Source: Xylanibacter ruminicola 23 | GTDB lineage: Bacteria > Bacteroidota > Bacteroidia > Bacteroidales > Bacteroidaceae | Assembly (NCBI RefSeq): GCF_000025925.1 | Contig: NC_014033.1 | Location: 1,920,001-1,952,000 of the forward strand | Length of the DNA stretch: 32,000 nucleotides | Direction: 5' to 3' | Part shown: positions 788 through 16,651 of the stretch, in pieces | Numbering within the stretch: position 1 is the first letter of the stretch | Layout of the letters: the number at the start of each line of letters is the position of its first letter | Notes under the pieces: model-generated | What the model was told of the DNA's origin: nothing | The model's input: only the letters and a program-made list of their open reading frames with translations | Databases searched by the model: none | Program-made: the position numbers and the translations under genes

Positions 788-2362
788 TTATCTGTTCGAT
801 TCTACTTCGGCACGCTTTGCACGATAGTAACGATCCACGAAATCAATCTGCTCACGGTTGGGCACATTAATCAGCGATGCACCATTGCTGAACTGCATAG
901 TGGTTGGCTTGCTCTCGTCGAAGGTTGGCCAGTAAGGCAGCCCCTTACCGTTAGGATTACCCGTCTTGGCAAAGTTCACCCAGTACTGCTGAATGATTTC
1001 GGCCAGAGCACTCTCGGTAGGATACTTCTGAGGTTGGTCGAGGAACATACCGTTCAGGTACATGATATCATCGGCATGAGCCACACCCTTACGACGCGGA
1101 TCACGTGAAAAACTCATCTCCGAAGGCTGAGCCAGATAAGCCGCATAAGCCGCACTCTTACCAGTCTTGGCCTGCAAGCTAACCCATGCATACGATGGCC
1201 ATGCAAAGCCCATATCACGGAAGGCATCGCCAAAGCCGTGCCAAGCCTCGTCGTTGGTAGCACCAGGATAGAACTTCAATGCCTCGTCGGCCCAAGCACC
1301 AAAAATGCTCTTCAGCGTTTTCTGATAGTCCTCGGCAGTAATGTTACCTGGGGCAAACAGCGCACCCTCGTCGCTATTGGTCATCACGATTACAGGCACA
1401 TCGTTATACTCGCCGCGCTCATACATACGATACTGGTCGTCGCAAATCACGTAACCATCCACGCAAGGCCAGAAACCAGCAAAGCCCACGTTACCATCGC
1501 ACAGTGCCATGGCATCCATGGCACGCAGCTGCTTCAGATTCTTTTTCTTCAGATGCTTCATAAAGGCCACACCCTGCTGCTCGGCACCCTTCTGCGAGGC
1601 ATCAAGTCCTAACGAACGTGGCGCATCGCTCCAAGGCGCAAACGAGCCACCGCTATGACTGATACAACGATGGAACAAACCACGTGCCAAAGGCGATGCA
1701 CACAGCATGCTACAGCTGATGGCACCAGCACTCTCACCAAAGATGGTTACCTGATCAGGATCGCCACCAAACTGGGCAATGTTACGCTGTACCCACTGCA
1801 GGGCATAAATCTGGTCTAACAATCCGTAGTTACCCGAATGGCCGTCTTTGCTTTCCTTAGTCAGTTCGGGATGGGCCATAAAGCCTAAGGCACCTGTACG
1901 GTACTCGATGCTCACGATCACTACACCACGCAGTGCCAGGTGCTTCCACAGGTCGCCACCATACCACTCGGTCTGGAAACCGCCACCGTGAATCCATACC
2001 ATCACAGGCAGTTTGTCGTTTACGGTCTTAGCTGGTGTGGCAATACCCAGATACAGGCAGTCCTCGCTCATCATATCGGCCGTACGACCAGGACGTGTGG
2101 GCTGAGGAGGCATTTTTCCAAACTCATCGCACACGCGTACACCCTCCCAGGCCTTGGCAGGCTGTGGAGCGCGCCAACGCAGATTACCAACAGGAGGTGC
2201 TGCGTATGGGATGGCCTTATACACGGCCAGTCCATCGTCCAGTACACCTTGTACATCACCAGTCTCTACATGTGTTGCCAACAGCGGTTGAGCCTCAGCA
2301 ACAAAGCTGGTTGCCATCACAACAGCAACCAGCATCAGTCTTCTAAGTAACACTTTCATCAC
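788..2362 (-). CDS. type-B carboxylesterase/lipase (para-nitrobenzyl esterase-like), secreted
   Basis: 524-aa ORF with an N-terminal signal peptide (MMKVLLRRLMLVAVVMATSFVAEAQ). It has the HGGGF oxyanion motif and the GESAGA nucleophile-elbow motif. Confidence 0.9.
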   Translation of the reverse strand: MMKVLLRRLMLVAVVMATSFVAEAQPLLATHVETGDVQGVLDDGLAVYKAIPYAAPPVGNLRWRAPQPAKAWEGVRVCDEFGKMPPQPTRPGRTADMMSEDCLYLGIATPAKTVNDKLPVMVWIHGGGFQTEWYGGDLWKHLALRGVVIVSIEYRTGALGFMAHPELTKESKDGHSGNYGLLDQIYALQWVQRNIAQFGGDPDQVTIFGESAGAISCSMLCASPLARGLFHRCISHSGGSFAPWSDAPRSLGLDASQKGAEQQGVAFMKHLKKKNLKQLRAMDAMALCDGNVGFAGFWPCVDGYVICDDQYRMYERGEYNDVPVIVMTNSDEGALFAPGNITAEDYQKTLKSIFGAWADEALKFYPGATNDEAWHGFGDAFRDMGFAWPSYAWVSLQAKTGKSAAYAAYLAQPSEMSFSRDPRRKGVAHADDIMYLNGMFLDQPQKYPTESALAEIIQQYWVNFAKTGNPNGKGLPYWPTFDESKPTTMQFSNGASLINVPNREQIDFVDRYYRAKRAEVESNR

Positions 2363-2373
2363 TTGTTTAATTA

Positions 2374-3513
2374 TTATTTTTTAGTTGTTGTACATTCATT
2401 TACCAGATACACAATACTCATATAAGGTATGCCTGTGTTCGATTCGAGACCAATCTCACAGGTACGACTGTTAGAGTAGCCCACCTCGATATGGTTAGCC
2501 TCAATCTGTGGGCGCAGCTTGCGCAATCCGTACTTATTCAGCTCTGGGAAGGTAAAGCCTCTGTCGCCAGCAAAGCCGCAACACCCCACACCCTCGGGTA
2601 GGAACACGTTGTTTGAGCACAGCTTAGCCAAAGCTATCATATCCTTATCTACACCCATCTGTCGGGTAGAACACGTCAGGTGCAGTGCTATATGACGGTC
2701 GATAGGATGGAAATCCAATCGAGGTACCAGGAACTTCATAATAAACTCGGCAGGCTCGTAGAGGTGCATCTTATGCATCACCTTCTTCATACGGTGCAGA
2801 CACGGACTCTGGGCGCACAGCACAGGATACTTACCCTCCTCGCTGGCTTTCCACAGGGCTGCCTCCAGTTCGGCACTCTTACGGTCGGCAATATCCAGCA
2901 TACCCTTACTCTCCCATATCTGGCCACAGCACATACGCTCCATGCCCTCTGGGAAGATTACCTCGTAGCCAGCCTTAGCCATCAACTGTATCACCTCATC
3001 CACCAGGTCGTGAATCTTGCCACCACTCTTCGACTGTCCCATGGTCTGATTGATACAGCTGGGGAAGTAAACCACCTTTGAACATTGAACATTCTTGCCT
3101 TGCAAGCCAGCAGAGCTGGAGCGGAACATTGAACATTGAACATTTTTATCTTCTGTTTGCGCAGCAGAATGGTCAATGGTCAACGGTGAATGGTCAATGG
3201 AATTAATGATAAACTGCGTCAGGTCGCTCTTCTTGGGCTGGCGATGCTTCTTAGGCATAGCGGTAGTCCAGAGTGGCAGGCCCATCTTGTTCATCGTACG
3301 ACATACGGTAGTCATCAGTGTCGGACCGAGTGTGACGTGTGCGGCATGTGCCACGTCGAGCACTACGCGCAGTCCGCTCTTGATGCCCGCCATATGCTTG
3401 GATGCATAATCACCCACCCAGTAGCCCAACGGACGTGTGTTCATGTCCAGTTGTCGTATCAGGTGCGTCAGCTCGCCTGTGTTTATCTTCATGGGGCATG
3501 ACGTTGAACACAA
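2374..3513 (-). CDS. cysteine-rich (CCG-type) C-terminal fragment of the same Dld-II/YdiJ-family oxidase
   Basis: It is in the same frame as 3568..5547, since 3570-3513=57. CCG-like motifs are present (MCCGQ, GCCGFAG). There is no credible independent start, because the ORF-track start is a TTG inside the Fe-S motif. It carries an in-frame repeat insertion. Confidence 0.7.
   Translation of the reverse strand: MCSTSCPMKINTGELTHLIRQLDMNTRPLGYWVGDYASKHMAGIKSGLRVVLDVAHAAHVTLGPTLMTTVCRTMNKMGLPLWTTAMPKKHRQPKKSDLTQFIINSIDHSPLTIDHSAAQTEDKNVQCSMFRSSSAGLQGKNVQCSKVVYFPSCINQTMGQSKSGGKIHDLVDEVIQLMAKAGYEVIFPEGMERMCCGQIWESKGMLDIADRKSAELEAALWKASEEGKYPVLCAQSPCLHRMKKVMHKMHLYEPAEFIMKFLVPRLDFHPIDRHIALHLTCSTRQMGVDKDMIALAKLCSNNVFLPEGVGCCGFAGDRGFTFPELNKYGLRKLRPQIEANHIEVGYSNSRTCEIGLESNTGIPYMSIVYLVNECTTTKK
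3079..3203. repeat. composite heptamer-array element inside the oxidase CDS
   Basis: TGAACAT x2 (3079-3092), a spacer holding two short palindromes, GAACAT+TGAACAT x2 (3124-3143), a second spacer, then ATGGTCA ATGGTCA ACGGTGA ATGGTCA ATGG (3169-3200). The arrays are mutually inverted. Confidence 0.9.
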
Positions 3514-3567
3514 GCCATCGGTAGCACAGGTCTGATCGCCATAGTACTTATACTGCTTCTGCAGGCG

Positions 3568-5469
3568 CTACAGGCGCTCGTCGTCCTCACCAGTCTTAAT
3601 CAGATGACAAATCTCGCGCTGTACGGCAATACGCATACGAGAAGATAGTGTGAGTCCGCACGACATACAGTTAACCTCGCAGAATCCGCACTCAATACAC
3701 TTGTTGGCACGCTTCACCTGCTCGATGGTTTCCTTGGCTGTACTCAGCTTGTGATCCATCAGGTAGTGTCCGCCATCAGGCACACTCTTGAAGTCGTAAT
3801 CCAACTCTGGCAGCGGCTTCAGACACTTGATAAAGCAGTCGGGATCGTCGTTGAATATCACACCCTGGTTCAGCAGTCCGTTCGGGTCGAAAATAGCCTT
3901 CAGCTCCTTCATCACCTCGTAGGCATTCTCGCCCCACTCGTACTTCACAAATGGTGCCATATTGCGACCCGTACCGTGCTCGGCCTTCAAACTGCCGTCG
4001 TAGCCCTCTACCACCAGCTTGGCCACATCGCGCATCATCTCGGCATAACGGGCCACCTCGTGCTCATCGGCAAAGCTCTGATTCAGAATAAAGTGATAGT
4101 TACCCTCGAACGCATGACCGTAGATACATGCATCGTCGTAGCCATGATCGGCTATCAGCTTCTGCAACTTCACGGTAGCCTCAGGCAGACTCTCGATGGG
4201 GAATGCCACATCCTCAATCAGGCACGAGGTGCCTACCGGACGTGTACCGCCTACCGATGGGAATATACCGCTACGGATGGCCCAGTACTTACCGTACACA
4301 GCCGGATCCTCGGTAAACTCGGCAGGAATATAGAGTTTGAATGGACCTAAGCACTCCTTAATCTTCTCGATCTTCAACAGCAGCTGATCGTGGGTAATAC
4401 CCTTGGTCTCGGTCAGTATAGCCGTTAAGTTATGGTAATCGCCAGGCTGCACGCCCTCAATCTTACCGGCATCCACATCCTGCTTATACTGCAGATAAAC
4501 GGGATCATCAACCGATGATAGCGACTTATAGTCGAGCATCTCGGCACTCTTCACCATCAGGTTCTCGGCGCTCATCTCCAGGTCTTCGTCGCCAGCCTTC
4601 AGCTTCTTCATAGCCACCACAGCCTCGCAACTCTCCTTCATGGTCATAAAGTAAACCATGGCCGATGCCTTGAACGGATAGTCCTTCAGTGTTTTCATCG
4701 TTACCTCCGACAGGAAGGCCAGTGTACCCTCGCTACCTACGATAGAGTGTGCGATGATATCAAACGGGTCGTCGTAAGCCACCAGTGGGCGCAGATTCAA
4801 ACCCGTTACATTCTTAATACTGTATTTCTTGGTAATGCGATTAGTCAGCTCCTGGTCGGCACGTACCTTGTCACGCAGTGCCTCGATCTTAGAGATAAAA
4901 TCAGGATGTTGTTTCTTGAATGCTTCGCGACTCACCGGGTCGCCAGTATCCAGTACCGTACCATCCGTCAGGATGATACGCGCCGATAGCAGCATACGGT
5001 CGCTATTGGCATGCACGCCGCAGTTCATACCCGAGGCATTGTTTACCACGATACCACCTACCATGGCAGCACCGATAGATGCCGGATCGGGTGGGAACAC
5101 ACGTCCGTATGGCTTCAGTATCTGATTAACCCTCGCCCCCACTATACCAGGTTGCAGCTTGATGCTCTCGGCTGTATCCGAAAGCATATACTTCTCCCAA
5201 TGCTTGCCAGCCACAATGAGCACGCTGTCGGTACAGCTCTGTCCCGAGAGCGATGTGCCAGCAGCACGGAAGGTAAAGGGCAGTTTATACTTGTCGCACA
5301 ACTGTACAATCTTTGATATCTCGGCCTCACCATCACTACGAAGCACTACCTTCGGAATCTGGCGATAAAAACTGGCGTCGGTACCCCAACCTAAGGTACG
5401 TAGCTCGTCGGTGTAAATGCGCTCGGCAGGCATGAATCGCCGAAGTTCTGATAAGAATTCGTTTAGCAT
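3568..5469 (-). CDS. FAD-binding oxidase / 4Fe-4S N-terminal fragment of a Dld-II (YdiJ-family) D-lactate/2-hydroxyacid dehydrogenase, ended by an in-frame TAG
   Basis: The ORF shows FAD-binding PCMH-type and FAD-linked oxidase C-terminal features plus CIECGFCEVNC. The likely start is the ATG at 5469 (MLNEFLSELRRF), downstream of a TATATTTG box at 5508-5515. The TAG at 3568-3570 is followed in frame by the next fragment. Confidence 0.8.
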   Translation of the reverse strand: MLNEFLSELRRFMPAERIYTDELRTLGWGTDASFYRQIPKVVLRSDGEAEISKIVQLCDKYKLPFTFRAAGTSLSGQSCTDSVLIVAGKHWEKYMLSDTAESIKLQPGIVGARVNQILKPYGRVFPPDPASIGAAMVGGIVVNNASGMNCGVHANSDRMLLSARIILTDGTVLDTGDPVSREAFKKQHPDFISKIEALRDKVRADQELTNRITKKYSIKNVTGLNLRPLVAYDDPFDIIAHSIVGSEGTLAFLSEVTMKTLKDYPFKASAMVYFMTMKESCEAVVAMKKLKAGDEDLEMSAENLMVKSAEMLDYKSLSSVDDPVYLQYKQDVDAGKIEGVQPGDYHNLTAILTETKGITHDQLLLKIEKIKECLGPFKLYIPAEFTEDPAVYGKYWAIRSGIFPSVGGTRPVGTSCLIEDVAFPIESLPEATVKLQKLIADHGYDDACIYGHAFEGNYHFILNQSFADEHEVARYAEMMRDVAKLVVEGYDGSLKAEHGTGRNMAPFVKYEWGENAYEVMKELKAIFDPNGLLNQGVIFNDDPDCFIKCLKPLPELDYDFKSVPDGGHYLMDHKLSTAKETIEQVKRANKCIECGFCEVNCMSCGLTLSSRMRIAVQREICHLIKTGEDDERL

Positions 5470-5507
5470 AGGGCGCTTGGGTTTAGTTATACTTCGATTT
5501 TTGTGAG

Positions 5508-5515
5508 CAAATATA
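5508..5515 (-). promoter_or_regulatory. Bacteroidetes-type -7 box (TATATTTG) for the oxidase gene
   Basis: The reverse complement of caaatata matches TAnnTTTG. It lies 38 nt upstream of the ATG at 5469. Confidence 0.45.
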
Positions 5516-5608
5516 CAAAATTTTTCGATATCACCACACTTTTTCAACGTTTTTTTGACTCTTTTGATTTTTTCACAAAAAAATCGTGGTACGTATCAAA
5601 AGTTTTCG

Positions 5609-5616
5609 TATATTTG
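5609..5616 (+). promoter_or_regulatory. -7 box (TATATTTG) for lactate permease
   Basis: Matches TAnnTTTG, 41 nt upstream of the ATG at 5658. Confidence 0.45.
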
Positions 5617-5657
5617 TCGGCAGAACTTATATAAATATTCACTAACACTAAAATCCT

Positions 5658-7262
5658 ATGTCAGCATTAGTATCTGCTATCCCTATTCTGTTACTCATTG
5701 TATTAATGATGGGTTTCAAGGTATCTGGCTACAAGAGCGCTATCGTTACGCTGATTGTAACCGTTGTATTGGCACTGTTCGCAGCACCAGCCTTAGGCAT
5801 TGTGCCCGAGAAGTATGCACAGGCAAGCATTGTTGGCATCACGCTATGGTCGGTAGTCGAGGGACTGCTCAAGGCCTGCTTCCCTATCATACTTATTATT
5901 ATATGTGCGATATTCAGTTATAACATCCTTTGCGAAACCAAGGAGATCGAGACGATTAAAACGCAGTTTATCCAGATGACCTCGGATAAAGGTCTGCTGG
6001 TACTGCTGCTTACATGGGGTCTTGGTGGTGTGCTCGAAGGTATGGCAGGCTTTGGTACGGCTGTGGCCATCCCGGCAGCCATCCTGATTGGCTTAGGTTT
6101 CAAGCCCATGTTCTCGGCTGTAATCTGTTTGATTGCCAACACCGTAGCTGTAGGCTTTGGTGCTGTGGGATTGCCCGCCACCACACTGGCCAACCAGGTT
6201 GCTGCCAGCGGTACCGCTACCCCCGAGGAGCTTTGCGAGGTAGCCACCTTTATTATCCTGCAGCTGTCGCTCATGTTCTTTATCACCCCGTTCCTTATCC
6301 TAATGCTTACCGATAAGACCAAGGTTGTCAAGAACATCTGCATTGCATTGTTTGTGGGTTCGTTCTCTATTATCGTGCAGTTCTGCTGTGCCCACTTTAT
6401 CGGTCCTGAGACACCAGCCATTCTGGGTTCGGTAGCCGCCATCGCCGCCATGCTGATTTACAACAAGCTGTTTATACACGATGAGAATCCTAATGACGAG
6501 GTGAAGGTTGAGAAGAAGAACTTCGGTCTGGTTAAAACGCTCAAGGCCTGGAGTGTTTACGGTTTGATTATCTTCTTCATCCTGATCAGTAGTAAGATTG
6601 TGCCTCCTGTTAACGAGCTGTTGGGTAGTACACTGGTTACCAAGTTCGAACTGCCCGTTATTGGCAACACCTTTAAGTTTGGCTGGCTGTCGAATGCCGG
6701 ACTGATGATTTTCCTGGGTGCTGTGATTGGCGGATTGATTCAGGGCATGAGTATCGGTGCCTTGCTGAAACTGCTGGCCAAGACCACACTGAACCTGCAG
6801 AAGACGGTGGTTACCATCTGCTGTCTGGTGGCCATGGCTATGCTCATGAACAATGTAGGTATGACTAACGATATCGCTAAGGGTCTGGTAATGCTTACCG
6901 GCGTGGCCTTCCCATTCTTTGCACCGCTCATCGGTTCTATCGGTACGTTTGTTACAGGTAGTGCCACCAACGCCAACATTCTGTTTGGTAAGCTGCAGGC
7001 CACTGCCGCTACCGACTTAGGATTGGTTAACCAGGGCACTTTCTTTGGTGTGAGTGGTAGCGAGACCAACTGGCTTGCTGCAGCCAACTGTGCCGGTTCC
7101 GAAGGTGGTAAGCTGCTGTCGCCACAAAGTATCGCCATCGCAACCGCAGCATGTGATATGGAGGGTCAGGATGGCGATATTATGCGTAAGACCATGCCGT
7201 TCGCTATCTTCTGGATACTGATGAACGGCCTGATGGTATTCTTAGGCTTGCACGTTATTTAG
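5658..7262 (+). CDS. lctP: L-lactate permease (LctP family)
   Basis: 534-aa polytopic membrane protein with LctP-family length and sequence character. It is divergent from a Dld-II-type oxidase, which is the classic lactate-utilisation pairing. Confidence 0.9.
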   Translation: MSALVSAIPILLLIVLMMGFKVSGYKSAIVTLIVTVVLALFAAPALGIVPEKYAQASIVGITLWSVVEGLLKACFPIILIIICAIFSYNILCETKEIETIKTQFIQMTSDKGLLVLLLTWGLGGVLEGMAGFGTAVAIPAAILIGLGFKPMFSAVICLIANTVAVGFGAVGLPATTLANQVAASGTATPEELCEVATFIILQLSLMFFITPFLILMLTDKTKVVKNICIALFVGSFSIIVQFCCAHFIGPETPAILGSVAAIAAMLIYNKLFIHDENPNDEVKVEKKNFGLVKTLKAWSVYGLIIFFILISSKIVPPVNELLGSTLVTKFELPVIGNTFKFGWLSNAGLMIFLGAVIGGLIQGMSIGALLKLLAKTTLNLQKTVVTICCLVAMAMLMNNVGMTNDIAKGLVMLTGVAFPFFAPLIGSIGTFVTGSATNANILFGKLQATAATDLGLVNQGTFFGVSGSETNWLAAANCAGSEGGKLLSPQSIAIATAACDMEGQDGDIMRKTMPFAIFWILMNGLMVFLGLHVI

Positions 7263-8055
7263 CAGGCTGCAGGTACCAGCGTACCGTCCAGCTTAGCTCA
7301 GCACCGGGAGCCAGGGTTGTATAAGCACCTTGGCTCTCGAGTTCTATATAGGTCTTGCCACGGTTCACGTACACCTGAATCTCGGCCTCACCAGGAGCAG
7401 GCTCATCAGCCTTCAGGTCGGCAAACTTCTTGGTCAGCACCAGTCCGTTGTTCTCGTAGCTCAGCCAGCCCTTACCGTCGGCATTCACCTTACGGTTCTG
7501 CTGGGCCTCGTCGGCAGCATAGCAAGCCACTCCGTCTTTCTGCTCAAAGTTCATCAAGCCAGCAGGCCAGATGCTCTCCACAGGGGCATCAAACTTAATC
7601 ACACCGGCATTAGGCACACGGGTAATCTCCCAAGGAGCCACTTTACGTTCCTCACCACTCTCGTTTATGATCGAATAGGTAATCACAATGGCACCATCCT
7701 TCTTGTCGGTACTGAAGTCCTTGCGCACACGGTACTTCAGCTTCTCCGATACCGGACTGGTCATCACCAGATGCCCGTCTTTCTCTACCACCTCGTACAC
7801 GCCCTTGTCGAGTTCGAATACGGGAGGCCAGTTCCACTCCTTCTGCGGACTTGTCCAGAAGGTGCTACCGAAGCTTTCGGGCCACCTGAGCTGCGAAATA
7901 ACTTCCTGATCCTGATACTTGAGCGACGTGATTTTAGCGCCCTTTTCGGGGGTGATGGTCATGGTTACATCACCAATCTTCACCTCTTTGGTCTGAGCCA
8001 TAGCAGCCGATGACATGAGCAGGGCTACAGCCGAAAGCATTACAATTCGTTTCAT
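7255..8055 (-). CDS. secreted protein, DUF4380-like (aldose-epimerase-like beta-sandwich), function unknown
   Basis: The ORF is 7255..8094. The preferred start is the ATG at 8055 (MKRIVMLSAVALLMSSAAMAQ signal peptide). The family assignment is from memory of similar Bacteroidetes proteins. Confidence 0.6.
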   Translation of the reverse strand: MKRIVMLSAVALLMSSAAMAQTKEVKIGDVTMTITPEKGAKITSLKYQDQEVISQLRWPESFGSTFWTSPQKEWNWPPVFELDKGVYEVVEKDGHLVMTSPVSEKLKYRVRKDFSTDKKDGAIVITYSIINESGEERKVAPWEITRVPNAGVIKFDAPVESIWPAGLMNFEQKDGVACYAADEAQQNRKVNADGKGWLSYENNGLVLTKKFADLKADEPAPGEAEIQVYVNRGKTYIELESQGAYTTLAPGAELSWTVRWYLQPAK

Positions 8056-8165
8056 ACTTATAGTTGATAATGATTTTTTTGATGTTAGACGCACGCCAAG
8101 GGCAAAAGTTAAGCCTCATTATAGTTCGTTAACGTTAGTTGTTTTGTTTTGTGCGCGCTTAATCG

Positions 8166-8173
8166 TACCTTTG
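8166..8173 (+). promoter_or_regulatory. -7 box (TACCTTTG) only 8 nt before the MFS start codon
   Basis: Matches TAnnTTTG. The context is TTTGCACCCGAAATG. Confidence 0.45.
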
Positions 8174-8181
8174 CACCCGAA

Positions 8182-9471
8182 ATGGATAAACTTTGGAATA
8201 GGAACTACTGCAAGGTAATGGCAGCCAACTTTACGTTGTTTTTTGCCTTTTACGTGCTTACACCACTGTTGCCGCTCTACCTGAGCGAGCACTTCGGAGC
8301 CACTAAGGACGTGATCGGACTGGTGCTTTCGGGCTATACCATCACCGCCCTGCTGTTTCGTCCGTTCAGCGGCTATGTAGTAGATTCGTTTCCCCGCAAA
8401 ATGGTGCTCATGGTGTCGTTTAGCGTGTTTGCCATCTTCTTTGCCGGCTACCTGGCCGCCTCTACCCTGTTGCTGTTCACCATTGTGCGCACGCTGCATG
8501 GCGGTCCGTTCGGCGCCCTCACCGTGGCCAATTCTACCGTGGCCATCGATGTGCTGCCCAGCAGCCGTCGTACCGAGGGTATCGGCTATTACGGCTTGAG
8601 CAACAATCTGGCCATGGCCATCGCCCCCACCATCGGCATTTTCATCTACCAGCTTACCAACAGCTTCGAGTTTCTGTTCTGGTTAGCGCTCATCGTAGCC
8701 ACCACAGGCTGGCTGATCGATAGTACTGTAAAGCTTAAGCCTAGAGATTCTAGCCAGGCTAGAAGCTCAAGGCTCTCACTCGACCGCTTCTTCCTTACAC
8801 GTGGCTGGCTGTTGGGCCTGAACATGGTGGCTTTTGGCTTTAGTTTTGGTGTGCTTAGCAACTATCTGGCCATTTATGGTAAGGAGGTAATGGGTATTAC
8901 CGGTGGCACAGGCACCTATTTCATGCTGTGCTCAGTAGGTCTTATCCTCAGTCGCCTGCAGGGTAGCAAAGCCCTCCGCGACGGTCGTGTAACCCATAAC
9001 GCCGCTACCGGTATGGTCATCTCCCTGGTAGGCTACACATTGTTTATACTCATGCCAACCTTGGCTCAAAGTTCCATGGTCAATGGTCAATGTTCAATGG
9101 TCAATGGTCAATGTTCAATGGTCAATGGTCAATGGTCAATGTTCAATGGTCAATGGTCAATGTTCATCGGCTACTACGGTTCCGCATTGTTGATTGGTTT
9201 AGGCAACGGTCATATGTGGCCTGCGTTCCAGAACATGACCATCAATGTGGCCACCAACAAACAGCGTGGCACTGCCAACAGTACCATCCTTATCTCGTGG
9301 GATATCGGTATGGGATTAGGTATTCTGGCTGGTGGTATCGTAGCCGAGCTCATTAGCTATAGCGCAGCCTTCTGGACGGTAGTACTCGTTAACGGTACGG
9401 GTGTAGCCACGTATTTCCTGGCTACGCGCGCCTTCTTCCTGCGCCGTAACCTCAATCCTACCGTACGATAA
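8182..9471 (+). CDS. MFS transporter carrying a 13-unit heptamer array in frame
   Basis: The ORF is 8149..9471. The start is the ATG at 8182 (MDKLWNRNYCKVMAANF). It has multiple TM helices and MFS-like loops. Confidence 0.85.
   Translation: MDKLWNRNYCKVMAANFTLFFAFYVLTPLLPLYLSEHFGATKDVIGLVLSGYTITALLFRPFSGYVVDSFPRKMVLMVSFSVFAIFFAGYLAASTLLLFTIVRTLHGGPFGALTVANSTVAIDVLPSSRRTEGIGYYGLSNNLAMAIAPTIGIFIYQLTNSFEFLFWLALIVATTGWLIDSTVKLKPRDSSQARSSRLSLDRFFLTRGWLLGLNMVAFGFSFGVLSNYLAIYGKEVMGITGGTGTYFMLCSVGLILSRLQGSKALRDGRVTHNAATGMVISLVGYTLFILMPTLAQSSMVNGQCSMVNGQCSMVNGQWSMFNGQWSMFIGYYGSALLIGLGNGHMWPAFQNMTINVATNKQRGTANSTILISWDIGMGLGILAGGIVAELISYSAAFWTVVLVNGTGVATYFLATRAFFLRRNLNPTVR
8750..8762. repeat. perfect 13-nt palindrome CTAGCCAGGCTAG inside the MFS CDS
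   Basis: Read directly from the sequence. The identical 13-mer recurs at 11429-11441 inside mfd. Confidence 0.9.
9076..9166 (+). repeat. tandem heptanucleotide array, 13 units (ATGGTCA/ATGTTCA)
   Basis: The units run contiguously from 9076 to 9166 in the pattern GGT GGT GGGT GGT, where G=ATGGTCA and T=ATGTTCA. The array translates as SMVNGQCSMVNGQCSMVNGQWSMFNGQWSMF. Confidence 0.95.
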
Positions 9472-9480
9472 AATCAATGA

Positions 9481-10308
9481 TTAGCGTACCAGCCCCTTCT
9501 TCATGTCGCGCATCTTACAAGGTATCCAAACCGTAACATGGGTACCCTTGCCTTTCTCCGACTTCAGGTCGATGGTGCCATGCAGCCCCTCAACAATCGA
9601 CTTGCAGATAGATAAGCCCAGACCCGAACGCTGATTAAACAGTGCCAGCGAATCGTTACCCTGAATGAGTGTTGAGAAGTTCGACTTGAAGTCCTGAGGC
9701 TCACCGTCGCCTGTATCAATCACTTCTATCTTCAAGCCATTATCGGCATAATCATAATCGATGGTAATGGTACCCTCCTGGGTGTGCGCAAGCGCATTGT
9801 GCAACAGGTGTGTCATCAGCTGATACATCAGGTTGGTATCTACCATGCCCTTGGCGTGAGGCGATAATGGCGAACGTACAACTACTTGTACATTGGCACC
9901 TGCGTCGCGCTGAGCCTCACGGCGATACGACGCTATCAGCTCGGCCAGATTCACCTCTATCAAGGTAAAAGTGGCCATATTACTATCAAAGCTCGACAGT
10001 TCGAGTAGCTGCGATATAAAATACAGCAGCTGCTTACCATTCTGGTTAATGGTAGTCATCATGGCTTTCAGTTTCTTCGGATCAGACTCTTCATTATCCA
10101 GCAGCTTCTGACTATCGGTAATAATAGCATTCAAAGGCGTACGCAAGGCATGACTCACATTGGCCATAAACACCGTTTTAATACGCTCGCTACGCTGTGC
10201 ACGACCTATTTCATTTCTTAGGCGCACGTGATAATAATGCTGCACCAAAAAAAGACAGATTGCAAACAAAACCAGAATCAGAATAAAAATAATCGATTGC
10301 CAACTCAT
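9481..10308 (-). CDS. sensor histidine kinase (one TM, HisKA and HATPase_c, no obvious sensor domain)
   Basis: 275 aa. The H-box is SHALRTPLNAI and the C-terminal ATPase region contains the G-box-like segment SGLGLSICKSIVEGLHG. Confidence 0.85.
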   Translation of the reverse strand: MSWQSIIFILILVLFAICLFLVQHYYHVRLRNEIGRAQRSERIKTVFMANVSHALRTPLNAIITDSQKLLDNEESDPKKLKAMMTTINQNGKQLLYFISQLLELSSFDSNMATFTLIEVNLAELIASYRREAQRDAGANVQVVVRSPLSPHAKGMVDTNLMYQLMTHLLHNALAHTQEGTITIDYDYADNGLKIEVIDTGDGEPQDFKSNFSTLIQGNDSLALFNQRSGLGLSICKSIVEGLHGTIDLKSEKGKGTHVTVWIPCKMRDMKKGLVR

Positions 10309-10334
10309 AATGCTGTATTTTAGGTTTTAGACTG

Positions 10335-10342
10335 CAAAGATA
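10335..10342 (-). promoter_or_regulatory. -7 box (TATCTTTG) for the histidine kinase
   Basis: The reverse complement of caaagata lies 26 nt upstream of the ATG at 10308. Confidence 0.45.
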
Positions 10343-10352
10343 AGAAATAATC

Positions 10353-10390
10353 CGAAAAAAAAGAAGCAGTTAACATTTGTTAACTGCTTC
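10353..10390 (-). terminator. rho-independent terminator of hsp20
   Basis: On the minus strand a 12-bp perfect stem, GAAGCAGTTAAC-aaat-GTTAACTGCTTC, is followed by a T8 run. It starts 13 nt after the hsp20 stop. Confidence 0.8.
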
Positions 10391-10402
10391 TCCAATGTTT
10401 TA

Positions 10403-10828
10403 TTATGCAATGTCTATCTGTCGCGATAGCTTTACCTTCTCTTCTTCTATCTTAGGCAACTCTACGGTAAGTACTCCGTTCTCTACGCGTGCCTTAATGT
10501 CCTCCTTCTTCACATCGTCGGGCAGTATCAGTGTCTGCTCAAACTTCGAGTACGAGAACTCGCGGCGCAGATAGCGCATATTCTTATCCTCATCCTTGTG
10601 CTCCTGCTTCTGTTCCATCTTAATAATCAGGTTGCCCTCATCGTTAATATGAACATTAAAATCCTCCTTCTTCATGCCCGGTGCTGCAAGCTCTACGGTG
10701 TAGGCCTTGTCGCTTTCTTTTACGTTAATAGCAGGTGCTGTGCAATTTGCCTTCGGCATATACTCGGTGTCGAACAAATCTGCAAATACACTTGGAATCC
10801 AACTGTTAGTTCTCATTACTGGCATCAT
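10403..10828 (-). CDS. Hsp20/alpha-crystallin family small heat-shock protein
   Basis: 141 aa with an alpha-crystallin domain pattern (AYTVELAAPGMKKEDFNV ... ENGVLTVELPK). A strong SD, AGGAGGT, sits upstream of ATGATG. Confidence 0.9.
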   Translation of the reverse strand: MMPVMRTNSWIPSVFADLFDTEYMPKANCTAPAINVKESDKAYTVELAAPGMKKEDFNVHINDEGNLIIKMEQKQEHKDEDKNMRYLRREFSYSKFEQTLILPDDVKKEDIKARVENGVLTVELPKIEEEKVKLSRQIDIA

Positions 10829-10938
10829 AATTTTTACCTCCTAATTCTATTTTTTTAAATTGTTAAACCATGTTGTTGAGCGCCTAGTGGCGTTCACAAT
10901 CCATGATTGCAAAACAGATACCAGAGGCAAAGTATGCG

Positions 10939-13900
10939 TCAGATTGACATAATCTCCTGACAGATTGTCAGTGCAGAAGCTACAGTAGGTACTTCCGAAA
11001 TCACCACCGAATGCTTGCCCTTACCCTCGCGGAAGTTGCACTTACGGGGATAGCGCGACACGTACTGCAGTATCTTACCAAAGGCCTCGCTCTGGAAGTA
11101 AGGACTATCGTCGCGACTCACAAAGTAGAAGAACATCTTCTGCTGCTTCAGCATGATTTTCTCGATACCCAGCTGCTTACCGGCCACACGTAACGGTACC
11201 ACCAGAATCAGCTCCTCGCTCACAGCTGGTATGGCACCAAAACGGTCAACCAAACGCTTGCGATAGGCATCCAGCTGCAACTCCAACTGGGTACTGTTGG
11301 CCAGGTTGTCAAGCTCACGATACAGCAGCATGCGCTCCGAATCGCTCGGCACATACTGATCGGGGAAGTACATCTCGATATCGCTATCCAGCGCACAGTC
11401 GTCAACCCAGGAGATATTACTAGTCTCACTAGCCAGGCTAGCCGGGCTAGTTTTTCCAGCGGCAGAATCTGCCGCTGAAGCGGCCGATTCGGCCGAAGCT
11501 AGGAATTCGGGCTCTTCGTTTTTAAGCTCACTCATTGCCTGACTCAGAATCTTCTGGTACGTTTCGTAGCCCAAGTCGGCAATAAAGCCGCTCTGCTCCG
11601 AGCCCAACAGGTTTCCGGCACCACGGATGTCCAGATCCTGCATGGCGATGTTAATACCCGAACCTAAGTCGGAGAAGTTCTCGAGGGCCTCCAGTCGTCG
11701 GCGACTCTCCGGGTTCAGTGCCGAGAGTGGTGGTGCCAGCAGATAGCAGAAGGCCTTGCGGTTGCCACGTCCCACACGACCGCGCATCTGGTGCAGATCG
11801 CTCAGTCCGAAGTTATGGGCGCCATTGATAATGATGGTGTTGGCATTAGGTATGTCGATACCGTTCTCAACGATGGTGGTCGAGAGCAGTATGTCGTAAT
11901 CGTAGTTCGAGAAGTCGAGGATAATCTTTTCCAGCTCCTCGGGCTTCATCTGTCCGTGTCCGATACATATACGCGCATCGGGCACGTACTTCTGTATAAT
12001 CTCGGCTATATGCTGCAAATCTGAAATACGGTTGTTCACAAAGTACACCTGTCCGTTTCGGCTCATCTCGTAGTTCACAGCCTCGGCAATAATCTCCGGA
12101 CTAAAGGTATGGATCTCGGTCTGTATCGGATAGCGGTTAGGTGGTGGCGTTTGTATCACACTCAGATCGCGTGCGCCCACCAGCGAGAACTGCAGCGTAC
12201 GTGGTATAGGCGTGGCACTCATCGTGAGTGTATCTACCGATGTCTTCATCTGGCGCAGCTTTTCCTTGGTTGATACACCGAACTTCTGCTCCTCGTCGAT
12301 AATCAGCAGTCCCAAGTCCTTAAACTTCACGCTCTTGCTAATCAGTCGGTGCGTGCCGATGATGATATCTATCTTACCCTCGGCCAGATCTTTCTGTATA
12401 CGATTGGTATCCTTAGTGGTACGTGCACGCGTCAGGTAATCCACCGTTACAGGCATGTCTTTCAGTCGGTTGCTGAACGTACGGAAGTGCTGATAAGCCA
12501 GCACCGTAGTAGGCACCAACACTGCCACCTGCTTGCCATCCACAGCGGCTTTAAAGGCTGCACGCACAGCCACCTCGGTCTTACCAAAGCCCACATCACC
12601 GCACACCAGTCGGTCCATGGGTCGTGCCTTTTCCATATCGGCCTTCACATCCTGCGTAGCCTTCAGCTGGTCGGGTGTATCCTCATACAGGAACGATGCC
12701 TCCAGCTCGTGCTGCAGATACGAGTCGCGACTAAAGGCAAAGCCCTTTTCCTTCCTACGCTTGGCATACAGTTTTATCAGGTCGCGTGCTATCTCCTTAA
12801 TGTGCTGCTTGGTGCGCTCCTTCAGGCGCTCCCACTGCCCCGTACCCAAGGTCGAGAGTCGTGGTGCCTCGCCATTATCCTGCGACTTGTATTTGGCCAC
12901 CTTATACAGCGAGTGGATGCTCACGTAGATGGCATCGCCATGCTGATAGGTGAGCTTGATCATCTCCTGATAGCCATCGCCCTGTGGCATGCGTACCAGT
13001 CCGCCGAACCGTCCCACGCCATGATCCACGTGTACCACGTAGTCGCCAATCTCAAACTGCTGTATCTCCTTCAGCGTCAGCGCCATCTTTCCGCTACGGG
13101 CCTTGTCGCTCTTCAGGTTGTACTTATGGAAACGGTCAAATATCTGGTGGTCGGTAAAGAAGCACACCTTCAGGTCGTCGTCGATAAAACCCTCGTGCAG
13201 TGTCTTATCTACCGGTGTAAAACGTATCTGTGCATGCTCACCCTCGTTTTCGGCACGCTGTGCAAAGATATCCTTCAAGCGTTCGTTCTGCTTGGCACTG
13301 TCGGCCAGTATATACACTTGGTAGCCCTGGTGCAGATAGTTGTCGAAAGCCTGAAACAGCATCTCAAAGTTCTTATGGAACAGAGGCTGAATGGTGATAT
13401 CGAATCGGATGATGCTGCAGTCGGATATCGAGGCACGATGACCGAACTCAATCCTGCGGAAGCCCTCGGCCTGATGCATGAACTGCACGCCTGTTACCAG
13501 CGGCATATCCTCCTGGAAAGCGGCATCGATGGCATCGCGCACATACAGATAGTCCTTGGTGGCAATGATGGTATCCTGGGGCAACAACGACAGGAACGGC
13601 TCCTGAGCTGCCTCGTCGGCCTCCAGTTCGGGCACTATCTCTACCCTGTCACGTGCATCCAGCGAGAGCTGATCCTCTACCTGGAAGGTGCGCACGCTCT
13701 CCACATCGTCGCCAAAAAAGTCGATACGATACGGGTACTCGCAGCTATAGCTATACACGTCGAGGATAGAGCCACGCAACGCAAACTGTCCGGGCTCGTA
13801 CACGTAGTCCACCTCGTTAAAGCCCAACTCGCGCAACTGTTTGGTAATATCGCCTACGGGTACCTCCTGCCCTTTCTCAATCACCACCGTACGGTCGTTC

Positions 13901-14307
13901 AGCGTTTGCTTAGGCACCACCATTTCGGCCAGCGCCTCGGGATAGGTTACGATGAACACCGATTTGTCGATCTGTGTCATAACCTCGGTGCGCAGGATCT
14001 GTGAGGCAGAATCAAGCTGTCCGTACTTGATGGCACGACGGTAGCTGCTTGGGAAGAACAGCACCTGTCGGGTGCCCAACAGCTGTGTCAGGTCGTGATA
14101 AAAGTAGCCCGCCTCCTCGGCATCCTGCAGTATAAACAGGATGGGCGACTTGCACTTAGCAGCCAGACTACCAAACAACATGGGTGCACTCGAGGCCAAC
14201 AGCCCCTCAAGGAAAATACGTCGTGTAGCCGCATTTTCTATCTCATGAGCCAGCGCCGCCACCTGTGGCAACTTGGCATATACCTTCTCTAGTTCTTCTA
14301 TCTTCAT
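10939..14307 (-). CDS. mfd: transcription-repair coupling factor Mfd
   Basis: The ORF is 10939..14331. The start is the ATG at 14307 (MKIEELEKVY), downstream of the -7 box. It has the CarD-like region, the DEAD/H helicase motifs (GDVGFGKTEVA, DEEQKFG) and the TRCF C-terminal domain. Confidence 0.95.
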   Translation of the reverse strand: MKIEELEKVYAKLPQVAALAHEIENAATRRIFLEGLLASSAPMLFGSLAAKCKSPILFILQDAEEAGYFYHDLTQLLGTRQVLFFPSSYRRAIKYGQLDSASQILRTEVMTQIDKSVFIVTYPEALAEMVVPKQTLNDRTVVIEKGQEVPVGDITKQLRELGFNEVDYVYEPGQFALRGSILDVYSYSCEYPYRIDFFGDDVESVRTFQVEDQLSLDARDRVEIVPELEADEAAQEPFLSLLPQDTIIATKDYLYVRDAIDAAFQEDMPLVTGVQFMHQAEGFRRIEFGHRASISDCSIIRFDITIQPLFHKNFEMLFQAFDNYLHQGYQVYILADSAKQNERLKDIFAQRAENEGEHAQIRFTPVDKTLHEGFIDDDLKVCFFTDHQIFDRFHKYNLKSDKARSGKMALTLKEIQQFEIGDYVVHVDHGVGRFGGLVRMPQGDGYQEMIKLTYQHGDAIYVSIHSLYKVAKYKSQDNGEAPRLSTLGTGQWERLKERTKQHIKEIARDLIKLYAKRRKEKGFAFSRDSYLQHELEASFLYEDTPDQLKATQDVKADMEKARPMDRLVCGDVGFGKTEVAVRAAFKAAVDGKQVAVLVPTTVLAYQHFRTFSNRLKDMPVTVDYLTRARTTKDTNRIQKDLAEGKIDIIIGTHRLISKSVKFKDLGLLIIDEEQKFGVSTKEKLRQMKTSVDTLTMSATPIPRTLQFSLVGARDLSVIQTPPPNRYPIQTEIHTFSPEIIAEAVNYEMSRNGQVYFVNNRISDLQHIAEIIQKYVPDARICIGHGQMKPEELEKIILDFSNYDYDILLSTTIVENGIDIPNANTIIINGAHNFGLSDLHQMRGRVGRGNRKAFCYLLAPPLSALNPESRRRLEALENFSDLGSGINIAMQDLDIRGAGNLLGSEQSGFIADLGYETYQKILSQAMSELKNEEPEFLASAESAASAADSAAGKTSPASLASETSNISWVDDCALDSDIEMYFPDQYVPSDSERMLLYRELDNLANSTQLELQLDAYRKRLVDRFGAIPAVSEELILVVPLRVAGKQLGIEKIMLKQQKMFFYFVSRDDSPYFQSEAFGKILQYVSRYPRKCNFREGKGKHSVVISEVPTVASALTICQEIMSI
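11429..11495. repeat. cluster of odd-length perfect palindromes inside the mfd linker
   Basis: CTAGCCAGGCTAG (11429-11441), CTAGCCGGGCTAG (11438-11450), AGCGGCAGAATCTGCCGCT (11458-11476) and CGGCCGATTCGGCCG (11481-11495). Confidence 0.9.
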
Positions 14308-14320
14308 TGTGATTCGCGGA

Positions 14321-14328
14321 CAAAGATA
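14321..14328 (-). promoter_or_regulatory. -7 box (TATCTTTG) for mfd
   Basis: The reverse complement of caaagata lies 13 nt upstream of the ATG at 14307. Confidence 0.45.
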
Positions 14329-14336
14329 CAAAAAAA

Positions 14337-14403
14337 GGCACGAATAACGCGAATTTACACGAATTAATTTATTTTCTTCGCGTTAATTCGCGTATTTCGT
14401 GCC
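14337..14403. repeat. 67-nt palindromic element built from CRCGAATT units (copy A)
   Basis: The left arm is GGCACGAATAACGCGAATTTACACGAA and the right arm TTCGCGTTAATTCGCGTATTTCGTGCC, pairing at 23 of 27 positions. The loop is 13 nt and AT-rich. On the minus strand it is followed by T7. A near-identical copy lies at 22108-22172. Confidence 0.85.
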
Positions 14404-14448
14404 TAAACACACTCTGGCGCTACACGATTTCTTCGACAAGCGAAGCGT

Positions 14449-14550
14449 TTACACGATTTGTACGCCCGAGGCAGCTGCTCCTGCCGCTCCTAACAAGGCG
14501 GTGATTACTGCCACCACGATCTTCGCAATCGTCCTCCAGTTCTTCATCAT
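14449..14550 (-). CDS. 33-aa hydrophobic small protein ('smalltalk'-like), not in the ORF track
   Basis: The sequence is ATGATG...TAA, encoding MMKNWRTIAKIVVAVITALLGAAGAAASGVQIV. AAGGAGGA sits 4 nt upstream of the first ATG. The ORF lies directly downstream of an HU-like gene. Confidence 0.55.
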   Translation of the reverse strand: MMKNWRTIAKIVVAVITALLGAAGAAASGVQIV

Positions 14551-14603
14551 AATTCCTCCTTTCTTAATTTTTACATTATTACATTTTTACATTTTAATAA
14601 GGC

Positions 14604-14619
14604 TGGGGCCGAAGCCCCA
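14604..14619 (-). terminator. UUCG-tetraloop hairpin just after the HU-like gene; a weak terminator or a processing/attenuation site
   Basis: On the minus strand it reads TGGGGC-TTCG-GCCCCA, 5 nt after the stop. The downstream tract is AT-rich but is not a clean U-run. Confidence 0.45.
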
Positions 14620-14623
14620 AACC

Positions 14624-15058
14624 TTAATCCCCGATGGGCTCGTGGCTGCCACCGCCGTTACCACCGTTGCTTGGCTGGGTGTTGCCACCGTTGCCACCAC
14701 CGTTGCTACCGCTGTTAGCGGGCTTAGTGGTGTCGACATCGTTCTTTGGCGCCTCCTGCACACTGCAACCAGTGATGAAGGTCTTCTGACGCAGACCACT
14801 GCCATCGGTCTTTACCTCGGGCTGAAACAGCACGTGCAAGCCTTTGATGTTCTTGCTGATGCTGAAGTCAGCAGCGCTGTCAGCGCCCTCGCCACGGATA
14901 CCGATCTTAAACGATCCAAAGCCATTCAGCTTCACGCGCTTAGAATCCTGTAACTGGTCGGCCATCGTCTCGATGAGCTCAGAGATCACAGCCACGATAT
15001 CGGCCTTTTTCAAGGTACAGTTACGCTGCATGATAGCGGCCAGCATCTCCGTATCCAC
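14624..15058 (-). CDS. HU-family (Bacteroidales HU-like) DNA-binding protein with a Gly/Asn-rich C-terminal tail
   Basis: It shows the HU-fold pattern (TLKKADIVAVISELIETMADQL...VKLNGFGSFKIG) and the tail NSGSNGGGNGGNTQPSNGGNGGG. The start is uncertain, since the first start-capable codon in the open frame is GTG. Confidence 0.75.
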   Translation of the reverse strand: MDTEMLAAIMQRNCTLKKADIVAVISELIETMADQLQDSKRVKLNGFGSFKIGIRGEGADSAADFSISKNIKGLHVLFQPEVKTDGSGLRQKTFITGCSVQEAPKNDVDTTKPANSGSNGGGNGGNTQPSNGGNGGGSHEPIGD

Positions 15059-15167
15059 GGTCTGGGTAATCCAATCGTGCGCCCATAGCCAGGAAAGCAG
15101 CCCAACAAATTGATCCTGGGCTTAGATAATTAGTTGTTGTGTTAGCTACTTCGGTCATTCCGGAATG

Positions 15168-15175
15168 CAAAAGTA
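15168..15175 (-). promoter_or_regulatory. -7 box (TACTTTTG) for the HU-like gene
   Basis: The reverse complement of caaaagta lies 109 nt upstream of the GTG at 15058. Confidence 0.4.
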
Positions 15176-15224
15176 ACAAAAATATTTGAAACTTTAAATA
15201 CTTCTTCGTATCTTTGCCGCAGAA

Positions 15225-15425
15225 ATGGAGAATAAGCTATTCTTTTGGTTGAACTCACCCGAATTAGCAAAATTACGTGTATCAGAACGAGTTGCTAATG
15301 GTGGTCATAATATCCCTCAAGATGTAATTAGTAGAAGATATGTCGCAGGTATTATACTTAAAAATGCAGAGTTATGTCAAATAAAGAAATACAGGAATTT
15401 AACGAGAAATTGCGTCGTGGCTTAG
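15225..15425 (+). pseudogene. fragment of a zeta-toxin/AAA-ATPase family gene (middle portion only)
   Basis: LFFWLNSPELAKLRVSERVANGGHNIPQDVISRRYVAGI resembles the conserved C-terminal half of roughly 190-aa Bacteroidetes zeta-toxin-like ATPases. No P-loop N-terminus is present. The family match is from memory. Confidence 0.5.
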
Positions 15426-15559
15426 AGCTGGCTGAGAAAAGGATGCTTCAAGAAAAAGCTCTAAGAAATCAGGATGTAGTGGTTTGCGGAGCCGACCAGG
15501 TTATACGCCGTATACCTGCCAAACAGGTAATAGCCGATAATCCTATTTTTCAGGATTAG
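15374..15559 (+). CDS. small hypothetical protein, possibly an antitoxin-like partner of zeta-type ATPases
   Basis: 61-aa ORF, MSNKEIQEFNEKLRRGLELAEKRMLQEKALRNQDVVVCGADQVIRRIPAKQV. It resembles small proteins found beside such ATPases. This is recollection, not a search result. Confidence 0.4.
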   Translation: MSNKEIQEFNEKLRRGLELAEKRMLQEKALRNQDVVVCGADQVIRRIPAKQVIADNPIFQD

Positions 15560-15718
15560 AAGTAACTAACAGTACAAATGAAACTAAAAACATGATGAGA
15601 TTAATGGTGGTATGCTGATTATAGATTATGGCATGGCTGCTGATGGGCCTGGATATTACTTCAAAAAGATAATACCAACATTTTCTACATTTGAAAATTA
15701 AATAAAACAACAATAACC

Positions 15719-15860: not shown

Positions 15861-15882
15861 CCACCGATTTAAATGAGAATAT

Positions 15883-16632: not shown

Positions 16633-16650
16633 CCATTGAACATTGAACAT
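16617..16650 (+). repeat. heptamer array bridging the GT2 stop and the acyltransferase start
   Basis: GAAAAT TGAAAAT TGACCAT TGAACAT TGAACAT, followed by TATG. The TGA of the TGACCAT unit (16630-16632) is the GT2 stop codon. Confidence 0.9.
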
Positions 16651-16651
16651 T

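Follow-up and report, generated by a model that had tools for sequence, protein, structure and literature searches.

The question raised by this locus is whether a short non-triplet tandem repeat within a conserved transporter gene serves as a genetic switch. The repeat consists of thirteen heptamers and lies in a gene for a transporter of the major facilitator superfamily (MFS), in a 32,000-nt stretch of the Xylanibacter (Prevotella) ruminicola 23 genome; we refer to the whole of this stretch as the window. An initial annotation had proposed the repeat as a candidate contingency, that is, phase-variable, locus. Comparisons of the window with related sequences (which have handles with the prefix L) pointed to another answer. 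The array is probably a hypermutable member of a lineage-wide family of heptamer repeats, similar to the short tandemly repeated repetitive (STRR) sequences of cyanobacteria, that is tolerated in a loop of the transporter and filtered by reading-frame selection, and the null alleles that it generates would represent mutational load. The gene and the array are located as follows.

8149-9471, plus strand: MFS transporter gene hosting the array (Pfam MFS_1, E = 3e-45)
9076-9166, plus strand: thirteen tandem heptamers (nine ATGGTCA, four ATGTTCA), in frame, encoding about 30 uncharged residues (SMVNGQC/W and SMFNGQW blocks)

Analysis with Tandem Repeats Finder (TRF) and direct reading of the sequence both identified thirteen units within the MFS coding sequence. 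TRF assigned the array a period of 7, 13.0 copies, 91% matches, no indels and a score of 154, the highest of any tandem repeat in the window. The order of the units described in the initial annotation, GGT GGT GGGT GGT (G for ATGGTCA, T for ATGTTCA), matched the sequence, as did the 7-residue peptide repeat, which reads SMVNGQC SMVNGQC SMVNGQW SMFNGQW SMF. The orientation had also been correctly described as stop-free, the ATGGTCA/ATGTTCA unit having no stop codon in any of its three sense frames and a TGA in every antisense frame. The same seven codons are read in each of the three frames of a heptamer array. The sequence ATGKTCAATGKTCA, with one mismatch or fewer, had 19 occurrences in the window, compared to the 0.03 expected from shuffles.

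Metagenome contigs often break or are mis-joined at heptamer arrays (L007, L008, L010, L014 and L136), an observation that would favor the array being an artefact of assembly or sequencing at the repeat, which the initial annotation had named as grounds for withdrawing its proposal. For the 13-unit allele this was refuted. An independent 3.58-Mb assembly (L095, GCA_019973335.1) was the same as window positions 1-19471 (19,471 bp) except for one mismatch, with no gap, and three ENA contigs (L096-L098) had 99.96-100% identity to the window. Since five of five independent same-strain assemblies (the window, L095 and L096-L098) have exactly 13 units and identical flanks, the array is not an assembly artefact, and we consider the probability of such an artefact to be negligible. 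At the consensus level, the array length is stable within Xylanibacter ruminicola 23.

The number of units varies between strains. To describe this variation, we determined the length of the segment between two fixed anchors in the 120 closest homologs of the MFS protein (85-100% identity), which gave the following alleles.

16 residues: no array, 17 alleles
19 residues: different loop, no array, 14 alleles
23 residues: one block, 19 alleles
30 residues: two blocks, 34 alleles
37 residues: three blocks, 19 alleles
44 residues: four blocks, 5 alleles
33, 40 or 47 residues: array plus an extra 10-residue insert (a core, described below), 12 alleles

One block in this ladder, which runs from zero to four blocks, is equivalent to three units (21 nt, or 7 residues), and 89 of the 120 homologs were intact proteins with an array. 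At the DNA level, the syntenic locus of L005 and L006 has an empty site, GGCTCAAAGTTTAATGTTCATCGG, and other alleles have 5, 11 or 13 units. Relative to the empty site, alleles of +21, +63 and +84 nt were observed, the last of which is the 13-unit array (+12 units). The comparison of unit number among strains that had been recommended therefore refuted invariance, and the tract is slippage-prone in the sense that a real repeat has widely different unit numbers between strains. The prediction that changes of three units would keep the frame was borne out by the series of 16, 23, 30, 37 and 44 residues, and the proposal that the 21-nt superstructure reflects in-frame expansion was supported by real alleles differing by three-unit blocks.

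The initial annotation had also predicted that gain or loss of one or two units would shift the frame, and this held both in simulation and in natural alleles. A simulated gain of one unit resulted in a 404-residue product with a foreign tail, and a gain of two units in a 352-residue product ending in SSATTVPHC at a stop codon. To determine the frame independently of gene calls, the frame relation of the two flanks was measured in the DNA of 85 alleles, comprising the window, four relatives and the orthologous loci of 80 rumen Prevotella/Xylanibacter species. All 85 alleles were in frame and had no stop, with site lengths of 12-114 nt.

Null alleles were sought in a deliberately biased hunt, based on C-terminal fragments starting at an ATG inside the array, most of which were contig edges. 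Three alleles with a loss of one unit were identified. L129, whose array is in the interior of a 61.7-kb contig, has 4 units (compared with 5 or 11 in the in-frame alleles of the same background), and its upstream open reading frame (ORF) ends in GQCSSATTVPHC followed by a stop. L134 and L135 have 9 units each, one below the in-frame 10, and are different strains, based on their mutual identity of only 96.4%. The translated products of L129 and L134 end in the predicted SSATTVPHC tail, and the out-of-frame call for L135 was made from flank spacing and a split gene call. As the three one-unit losses are independent, these alleles indicate that single-unit slippage inactivates the MFS gene in nature, recurrently but rarely.

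Other searches for null alleles were less productive. A scan of metagenome DNA with the right flank returned 7 loci, of which three were contigs that stop in the array and the other four were copies of a single allele, a sample that was too small. A chimeric protein query containing both frameshift tails identified no tail-bearing protein, a negative that is uninformative because intact full-length MFS proteins were missed by the search as well. A candidate frameshift fragment, P0152/L014, was rejected as it derives from a chimeric contig joined at an array. Separately, an MFS allele that is in frame in L133 (556-1833) has a TGG to TGA change inside a core insert, representing a second route to null alleles.

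The MFS protein probably starts at the ATG at 8182, giving a 429-residue product. It has 100% identity to the MFS transporter of Xylanibacter (Prevotella) ruminicola 23, all of its matches to NCBIfam were under the curated cut-off, and in sequence it resembles transporters akin to the DHA-type efflux pumps. Its N-terminal half aligns with transmembrane helices (TM) 1-6 of NorA. The array site is the turn between helices MVISLVGYTLFILMP and IGYYGSALLIGLGNG, a turn that in some orthologs has only 4 residues (NMVG or GWLG), and the loops adjoining it are rich in arginine and lysine. Based on the NorA alignment, MFS topology and the positive-inside rule, this turn is likely to be TM9-TM10, on the periplasmic side of the membrane. 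An AlphaFold2 model of the protein, from a 14-sequence alignment, had a mean predicted local distance difference test score (pLDDT) of 30.6 and was not used, and crude hydropathy gave no information on the position of the array loop. The gene is in conserved synteny, with lactate permease, Mfd and HSP20 as neighbors, and all indications from its sequence and context are that it encodes a conserved inner-membrane transporter in a housekeeping neighborhood and not a surface, restriction-modification or host-interaction protein. In the species loci examined, the peptides encoded by heptamers at the MFS turn were all uncharged, with other species having, among more, TTCACTC (encoding SLFTLHS), TCAATTG (LSIVNYQ) and TTCTCAA (FSILNSQ) as their units.

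The array belongs to a large family. A census was made of 1.35 Mb, consisting of the window and 80 loci from 80 rumen Prevotella species, in which TRF arrays of at least three copies were counted. There were 144 arrays of period 7, compared with 1 of period 6, 23 of period 8, 16 of period 9, and 6, 16 and 9 of further periods. Perfect lag-7 self-match runs (at least 18 positions) numbered 23, those of each of the other periods from 4 to 12 numbered 0-3, and shuffles had none. The period-7 arrays have about 60 canonical unit sequences and were present in 53 of the 81 loci; 64 of the 144 (44%) were classed inside long ORFs, an assignment whose single hand-checked case (L076) proved to be intergenic. 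In proteins from related metagenomes, SMVNGQW/SMFNGQC blocks were in frame in MutY, a class-V aminotransferase, an AMP-binding enzyme, hemolysin III, a PNP/UDP phosphorylase and a GFO/IDH/MocA oxidoreductase.

Comparison of orthologous sites by BLAST separated arrays in genes from those outside them. All of the non-zero length differences in coding arrays (12 of 12) were multiples of 3. In non-coding arrays 12 differences were multiples of 3 and 28 were not, with an even distribution over residues modulo 3, and many amounted to 7 or 14 nt exactly, in either direction. The Fisher p for coding versus non-coding arrays was 1.3e-5. The simplest reading of these sequence differences is that mutation works in single units and that reading-frame selection shapes the arrays in genes. 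L076 was considered as a coding array with a -14 nt difference and was rejected, the array being intergenic and the ORF spanning it a spurious antisense frame.

The prevalence of these peptides bears on whether the repeat could be a functional, adaptively variable loop, with a role in gating or periplasmic interaction and a length under diversifying selection. Such a role would fit the wide in-frame length variation and the finding that heptamer-derived peptides with a 7-residue periodicity are present at the site in many species, consistently with no charge and with a high content of serine and hydrophobic residues. However, many orthologs have no insert or only the 4-residue turn, identical peptide blocks are present in unrelated cytoplasmic enzymes, and the peptide is the plain product of the heptamer in every frame. 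We consider an adaptive loop to be very improbable.

The census and the allele data together also address the proposal of the initial annotation. If the array were a true contingency locus, it would be kept for reversible, high-frequency ON/OFF switching of the transporter, as a form of bet-hedging, for instance against a toxic substrate or a selective agent. Several properties of the array are those of such loci: the repeat is in a coding region, its 7-nt unit is not a whole number of codons, 13 units are long enough for frequent slippage, the out-of-frame products are truncated, and inactivating unit loss has occurred naturally in three independent alleles from metagenome assemblies. There is a precedent for the unit size, as 7-nt repeats in the hmw1A and hmw2A promoters of Haemophilus influenzae are known to drive phase variation (PMC8262952). 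Against these properties, OFF alleles were not common among strains, with 0 of 85 out of frame in the unbiased DNA sample and all OFF alleles coming from the targeted hunt, and the ladder of in-frame lengths is indicative of selection for an intact protein. The repeat is also not targeted to a surface, host-interaction or restriction-modification gene, its host being a conserved inner-membrane transporter in conserved synteny. Lastly, because equivalent arrays are scattered in many housekeeping genes and intergenic DNA, the presence of this array needs no locus-specific explanation. We therefore consider a contingency function to be unlikely. What stands of the proposal is the non-triplet repeat in frame and the natural one-unit nulls, whereas the idea of a dedicated switch does not; among assembled alleles, at the consensus level, there was no evidence of the null alleles being a regulated or adaptive switch.

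Instead, we favor a frame-filtered, hypermutable array, which could arise as follows. Slipped-strand mispairing would add or remove single 7-nt units, as seen in the steps of the non-coding arrays. In a short transmembrane turn, the array would add an uncharged loop of variable length that is presumably neutral and tolerated by the MFS protein. Any change of one or two units would destroy the last three MFS helices and be removed by selection, and the alleles that persist would form a ladder in steps of 3 units (21 nt, 7 residues). The rare out-of-frame null alleles would then be the visible, and presumably non-adaptive, mutational load.

Several considerations weigh against this interpretation. 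The three one-unit-loss alleles and the nonsense allele L133 are a pattern that would be expected of a phase-variable gene too, and out-of-frame alleles make up very roughly 2-3% of assembled alleles, a rough estimate as the samples were differently ascertained. In addition, assemblies provide only a consensus, which would conceal any subpopulation that switches within a culture, the position of the loop follows from topology rules, and the support comes from sequence comparison.

At least five other heptamer arrays are present in the window. These, and a 30-nt element (referred to as a core) that splits one of them, are as follows.

3078-3093, minus strand: two GAACATT units (reverse complement of AATGTTC), in frame in an FAD/Fe-S (CCG-domain) oxidoreductase gene; left part of the array split by the core
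3094-3123, plus strand: 30-nt two-hairpin core, CTTGCCTTGCAAGCCAGCAGAGCTGGAGCG, exactly between heptamer units in the oxidoreductase gene
3124-3144, minus strand: three GAACATT units in the oxidoreductase gene; right part of the split array
3168-3200, minus strand: AATGGTC-type array, antisense to its host oxidoreductase gene, interrupted (TCACCGT for TGACCAT)
16617-16651, plus strand: five units (GAAAATT twice, GACCATT, GAACATT twice) at the junction of a glycosyltransferase family 2 (GT2) gene and an acyltransferase gene
18325-18368, plus strand: six-unit ACATTAA array between convergent genes
19726-19761, minus strand: weak G-rich period-7 tract (GGTGATG/GGTGTGG) inside an amidohydrolase gene, 77% matches

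The antisense array at 3168-3200 was invariant in four relatives. An in-frame TGA is avoided there because its units are interrupted, and it is only in this way that the array survives in the gene. At the GT2/acyltransferase junction, the array supplies the TGA stop of the GT2 gene (16630-16632) and abuts the ATG of the acyltransferase gene (16652); L001 and L003 are exactly one 7-nt unit apart at this junction, both with a 33-nt core, and L005 has TTGATAA units instead. The array at 18325-18368 contains two stops, the TAA of a metallophosphoesterase gene (18343-18345) and the reverse-strand TAA of a gene for a MetH activation-domain protein (18356-18358), and at the same site L001 has one more unit and a 38-nt core. 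The tract in the amidohydrolase gene is possibly a degenerate member of the heptamer family, judging from its units; in L044 and L067, a GGGTGMT array of related sequence precedes a core.

A hot spot for heptamer arrays was found in the intergenic spacer past the gene downstream of the MFS gene, where many species have arrays with very large length differences (L019:12067, L047:12083, L057:12099, L063:12099 and L076:12050). The corresponding region of the window, at approximately 10308-10403, is without an array. Contigs from short-read metagenomes frequently end inside arrays (L007, L008, L010, L130-L132 and L137-L142), chimeric joins between arrays of different loci were observed (L014:1-110 and L136:1-60), and on contigs broken at an array gene callers start ORFs at the ATG inside each unit. 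In the IMG/VR viral contigs (L099-L128), the (ATGKTCA)x4 motif was found in 26 and one core subfamily in 4, and a 145-kb contig (3300032030_000015) has both. Prophages of the same hosts, or host DNA wrongly classed as viral, may account for these contigs.

The cores differ in their behavior from the units that surround them. The core at 3094-3123 is shared by the window, L001 and L095. L003, L005, L006 and L016 lack it and have five uninterrupted units, so that the oxidoreductase site has 5 units with or without it. The MFS site likewise has 5 units in both L009 and L016, despite core insertion. Because the unit count is unchanged by insertion of a core, the target site is not duplicated. About 18 clear copies of related cores, 30-38 nt in length, were identified: relatives have them at both junction arrays, L003 has one in its Mfd gene, and many species carry them. 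Those carrying them include L001 (10342-10371 on the minus strand, and 20584-20621), L003 (15227-15256), L016, L019, L020, L025, L031, L038, L040, L044, L045, L055 and L067. Depending on the gene, cores are translated in any of the three frames, and the 10-residue inserts of the MFS proteins, PLQLCWLARQE and APALLACKAR, are the 30-nt core of 3094-3123 read in its other two frames.

All of the cores have a common plan, consisting of hairpin 1, hairpin 2 and then AGCG. Direct reading of nine distinct cores revealed paired changes in the stems of both hairpin 1 (CTTGC/GCAAG, CTTGG/CCAAG and CTCGG/CCGAG) and hairpin 2 (CCAGC/GCTGG, CGGC/GCCG, CGAAC/GTTCG and CGACC/GGTCG). The architecture had 42 occurrences versus 7-13 in shuffles, and the folding energies of individual cores were not significant (z from -1.8 to +0.1). 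Cores always follow TT, are usually, although not always, inside heptamer arrays, and at four orthologous sites are present in some strains and absent in others. From their sequences and distribution, they are possibly very small mobile elements.

These features lead to a further explanation of the arrays, in which they would be by-products of the core, with its repeated insertion and excision, or its transposase, building the heptamers, and the MFS array a scar or landing pad. Such an origin is suggested by the strain-variable cores, always after TT, which at four sites in close relatives fall precisely at a boundary of two units, and by the gain at the MFS site of no fewer than three distinct cores, each in a separate lineage (L001/L016, L031 and L055). 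However, most arrays are without a core, several cores are outside arrays (L019, L025 and L040), unit number was unaffected by core insertion at the oxidoreductase and MFS sites, and single-unit differences occur irrespective of cores, all of which makes this explanation improbable. In our opinion there is an even chance that rumen Prevotella/Xylanibacter have a two-layer system, with genome-wide, fast-evolving period-7 arrays that are tolerated in frame and 30-38 nt two-hairpin elements that insert precisely between the units, always in one orientation. The tolerance of arrays in frame in conserved proteins would be a result of a heptamer array encoding the same 7-residue block in all frames.

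Two core-bearing loci had additional features. In L003 the 30-nt core at 15227-15256 is in frame in the Mfd gene with GACCATT units flanking it, and the product has 1134 residues versus 1124 in L001. The length of Mfd (10939-14331 in the window) varies between close strains (1115, 1122, 1124, 1130 and 1134 residues), of which the core explains only part, and a low-complexity stretch rich in alanine and serine near the C-terminal third may also vary. In L045 (9243-9310, minus strand) two cores are in tandem, with AAGACATT between them, and are followed by an AGGACATT/AAGACATT period-8 array, which suggests that cores associate with non-heptamer arrays too.

Other features were noted in the window. 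The oxidoreductase gene is split by an in-frame TAG, due to a single base at position 3570 (minus-strand codon 3568-3570, DDERL-stop-RLQ), into ORFs at 3568-5547 and 2374-3513. L095 has a C at position 3570 (GAG, glutamate) and a single 1031-residue product, as do all relatives. The TAG has one of two origins, an error in sequencing the reference or a mutation confined to that culture lineage. Intergenic repeats of 9-10 nt (CACGAATTAA / TTAATTCGTG) at 14339-14367 and 22110-22171 form a palindromic motif, occur in both orientations and are unrelated to the heptamers. A period-8 array (ATTTTTAC, 3.6 copies) is located at 14567-14595, upstream of the Mfd gene region. An Rfam scan of the window returned no family match.

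These findings have several implications. A non-triplet repeat in a gene of the rumen Prevotella/Xylanibacter clade is not on its own evidence of a contingency locus, as it may be a frame-filtered copy of the family. The arrays represent a natural experiment in which mutation, in single units in non-coding DNA, is separable from selection, in 3-unit steps in coding DNA. Through the arrays, a dominant rumen genus has variable peptides of 7-residue periodicity in many of its conserved proteins, and for annotation the arrays are sites at which metagenome contigs break or are mis-joined and genes are mis-called. The cores, if confirmed to be mobile, would be among the smallest mobile elements known.

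With regard to known systems, the array is similar to the simple sequence repeat (SSR) contingency loci of Haemophilus, Neisseria, Campylobacter and Helicobacter in having a non-triplet unit, slippage and inactivation by a change of one unit. It differs from them in the rarity of OFF alleles, in the atypical class of its host gene, in the spread of the repeats over the whole genome and in the dominance of in-frame length change. The closest precedent for in-frame repeats in conserved genes is the Rickettsia palindromic elements (RPE), which are likewise selfish or neutral repeats that add a peptide in frame and leave the gene functional, but RPE are palindromes of about 100-150 nt and not tandem heptamers, with no unit ladder and no slippage dynamics. 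The cores alone have a likeness to the REP/REPIN elements and their RAYT, and to IS200/IS605, in their small hairpins, oriented insertion after TT and absence of a target-site duplication. However, they are far smaller than known IS200/IS605-derived elements, and no transposase was identified, although no search aimed at one was made. We regard this likeness as a mechanistic lead only. In the searchable literature there was no description of heptamer arrays or of such cores in Prevotella.

STRR are the heptanucleotide repeats of heterocystous cyanobacteria (Calothrix, Nostoc and Anabaena), with units such as CCCCAGT, TTGGTCA and CAACAGT, and we consider the period-7 family to be functionally comparable to them by analogy. 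Both have an over-represented 7-nt tandem unit in many dispersed copies (six arrays in the 32-kb window), several unit sequences per lineage, and extensive variation in length and sequence between close relatives at one position, with inverted pairs possible. The arrays described here are in Bacteroidota of the rumen and not in a cyanobacterial host, have AT-richer units on a TCAAT-like core, and in 44% of cases were in ORFs and translated, whereas STRRs have been described as mainly intergenic. The units differ, and as there is no sequence relationship, STRR are an analogue of these arrays. Heptameric SSRs are over-represented in some bacteria, notably Nostoc and Xanthomonas, and one proposal is that polymerase slippage favors the 7-nt unit size (PMC4692102).

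The cores in turn resemble the small dispersed repeats (SDR) of Nostoc punctiforme, tiny hairpin elements, often within heptamer arrays, whose presence or absence between strains suggests recent mobility. SDR have a length of 21-27 nt and a structure conserved through compensatory changes; they were reportedly described by Elhai et al. in 2008 (Genome Res 18:1484, cited through PMC3116915 and PMC5861425). The cores are longer, at 30-38 nt, and consist of two hairpins followed by an AGCG tail; they are unrelated in sequence, are found in Bacteroidota and have several copies translated in frame. According to PMC5861425, SDR had not been found outside of the Nostocaceae. The link between heptamer arrays and tiny hairpins has so far been cyanobacterial, and if the cores are mobile it would be open to study in a second, culturable phylum. 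If the two-layer system is real, it would be a Bacteroidota counterpart of the cyanobacterial STRR and SDR pairing, and would point to a shared, as yet unknown, mechanism that links heptamer arrays with ultra-small mobile hairpins.

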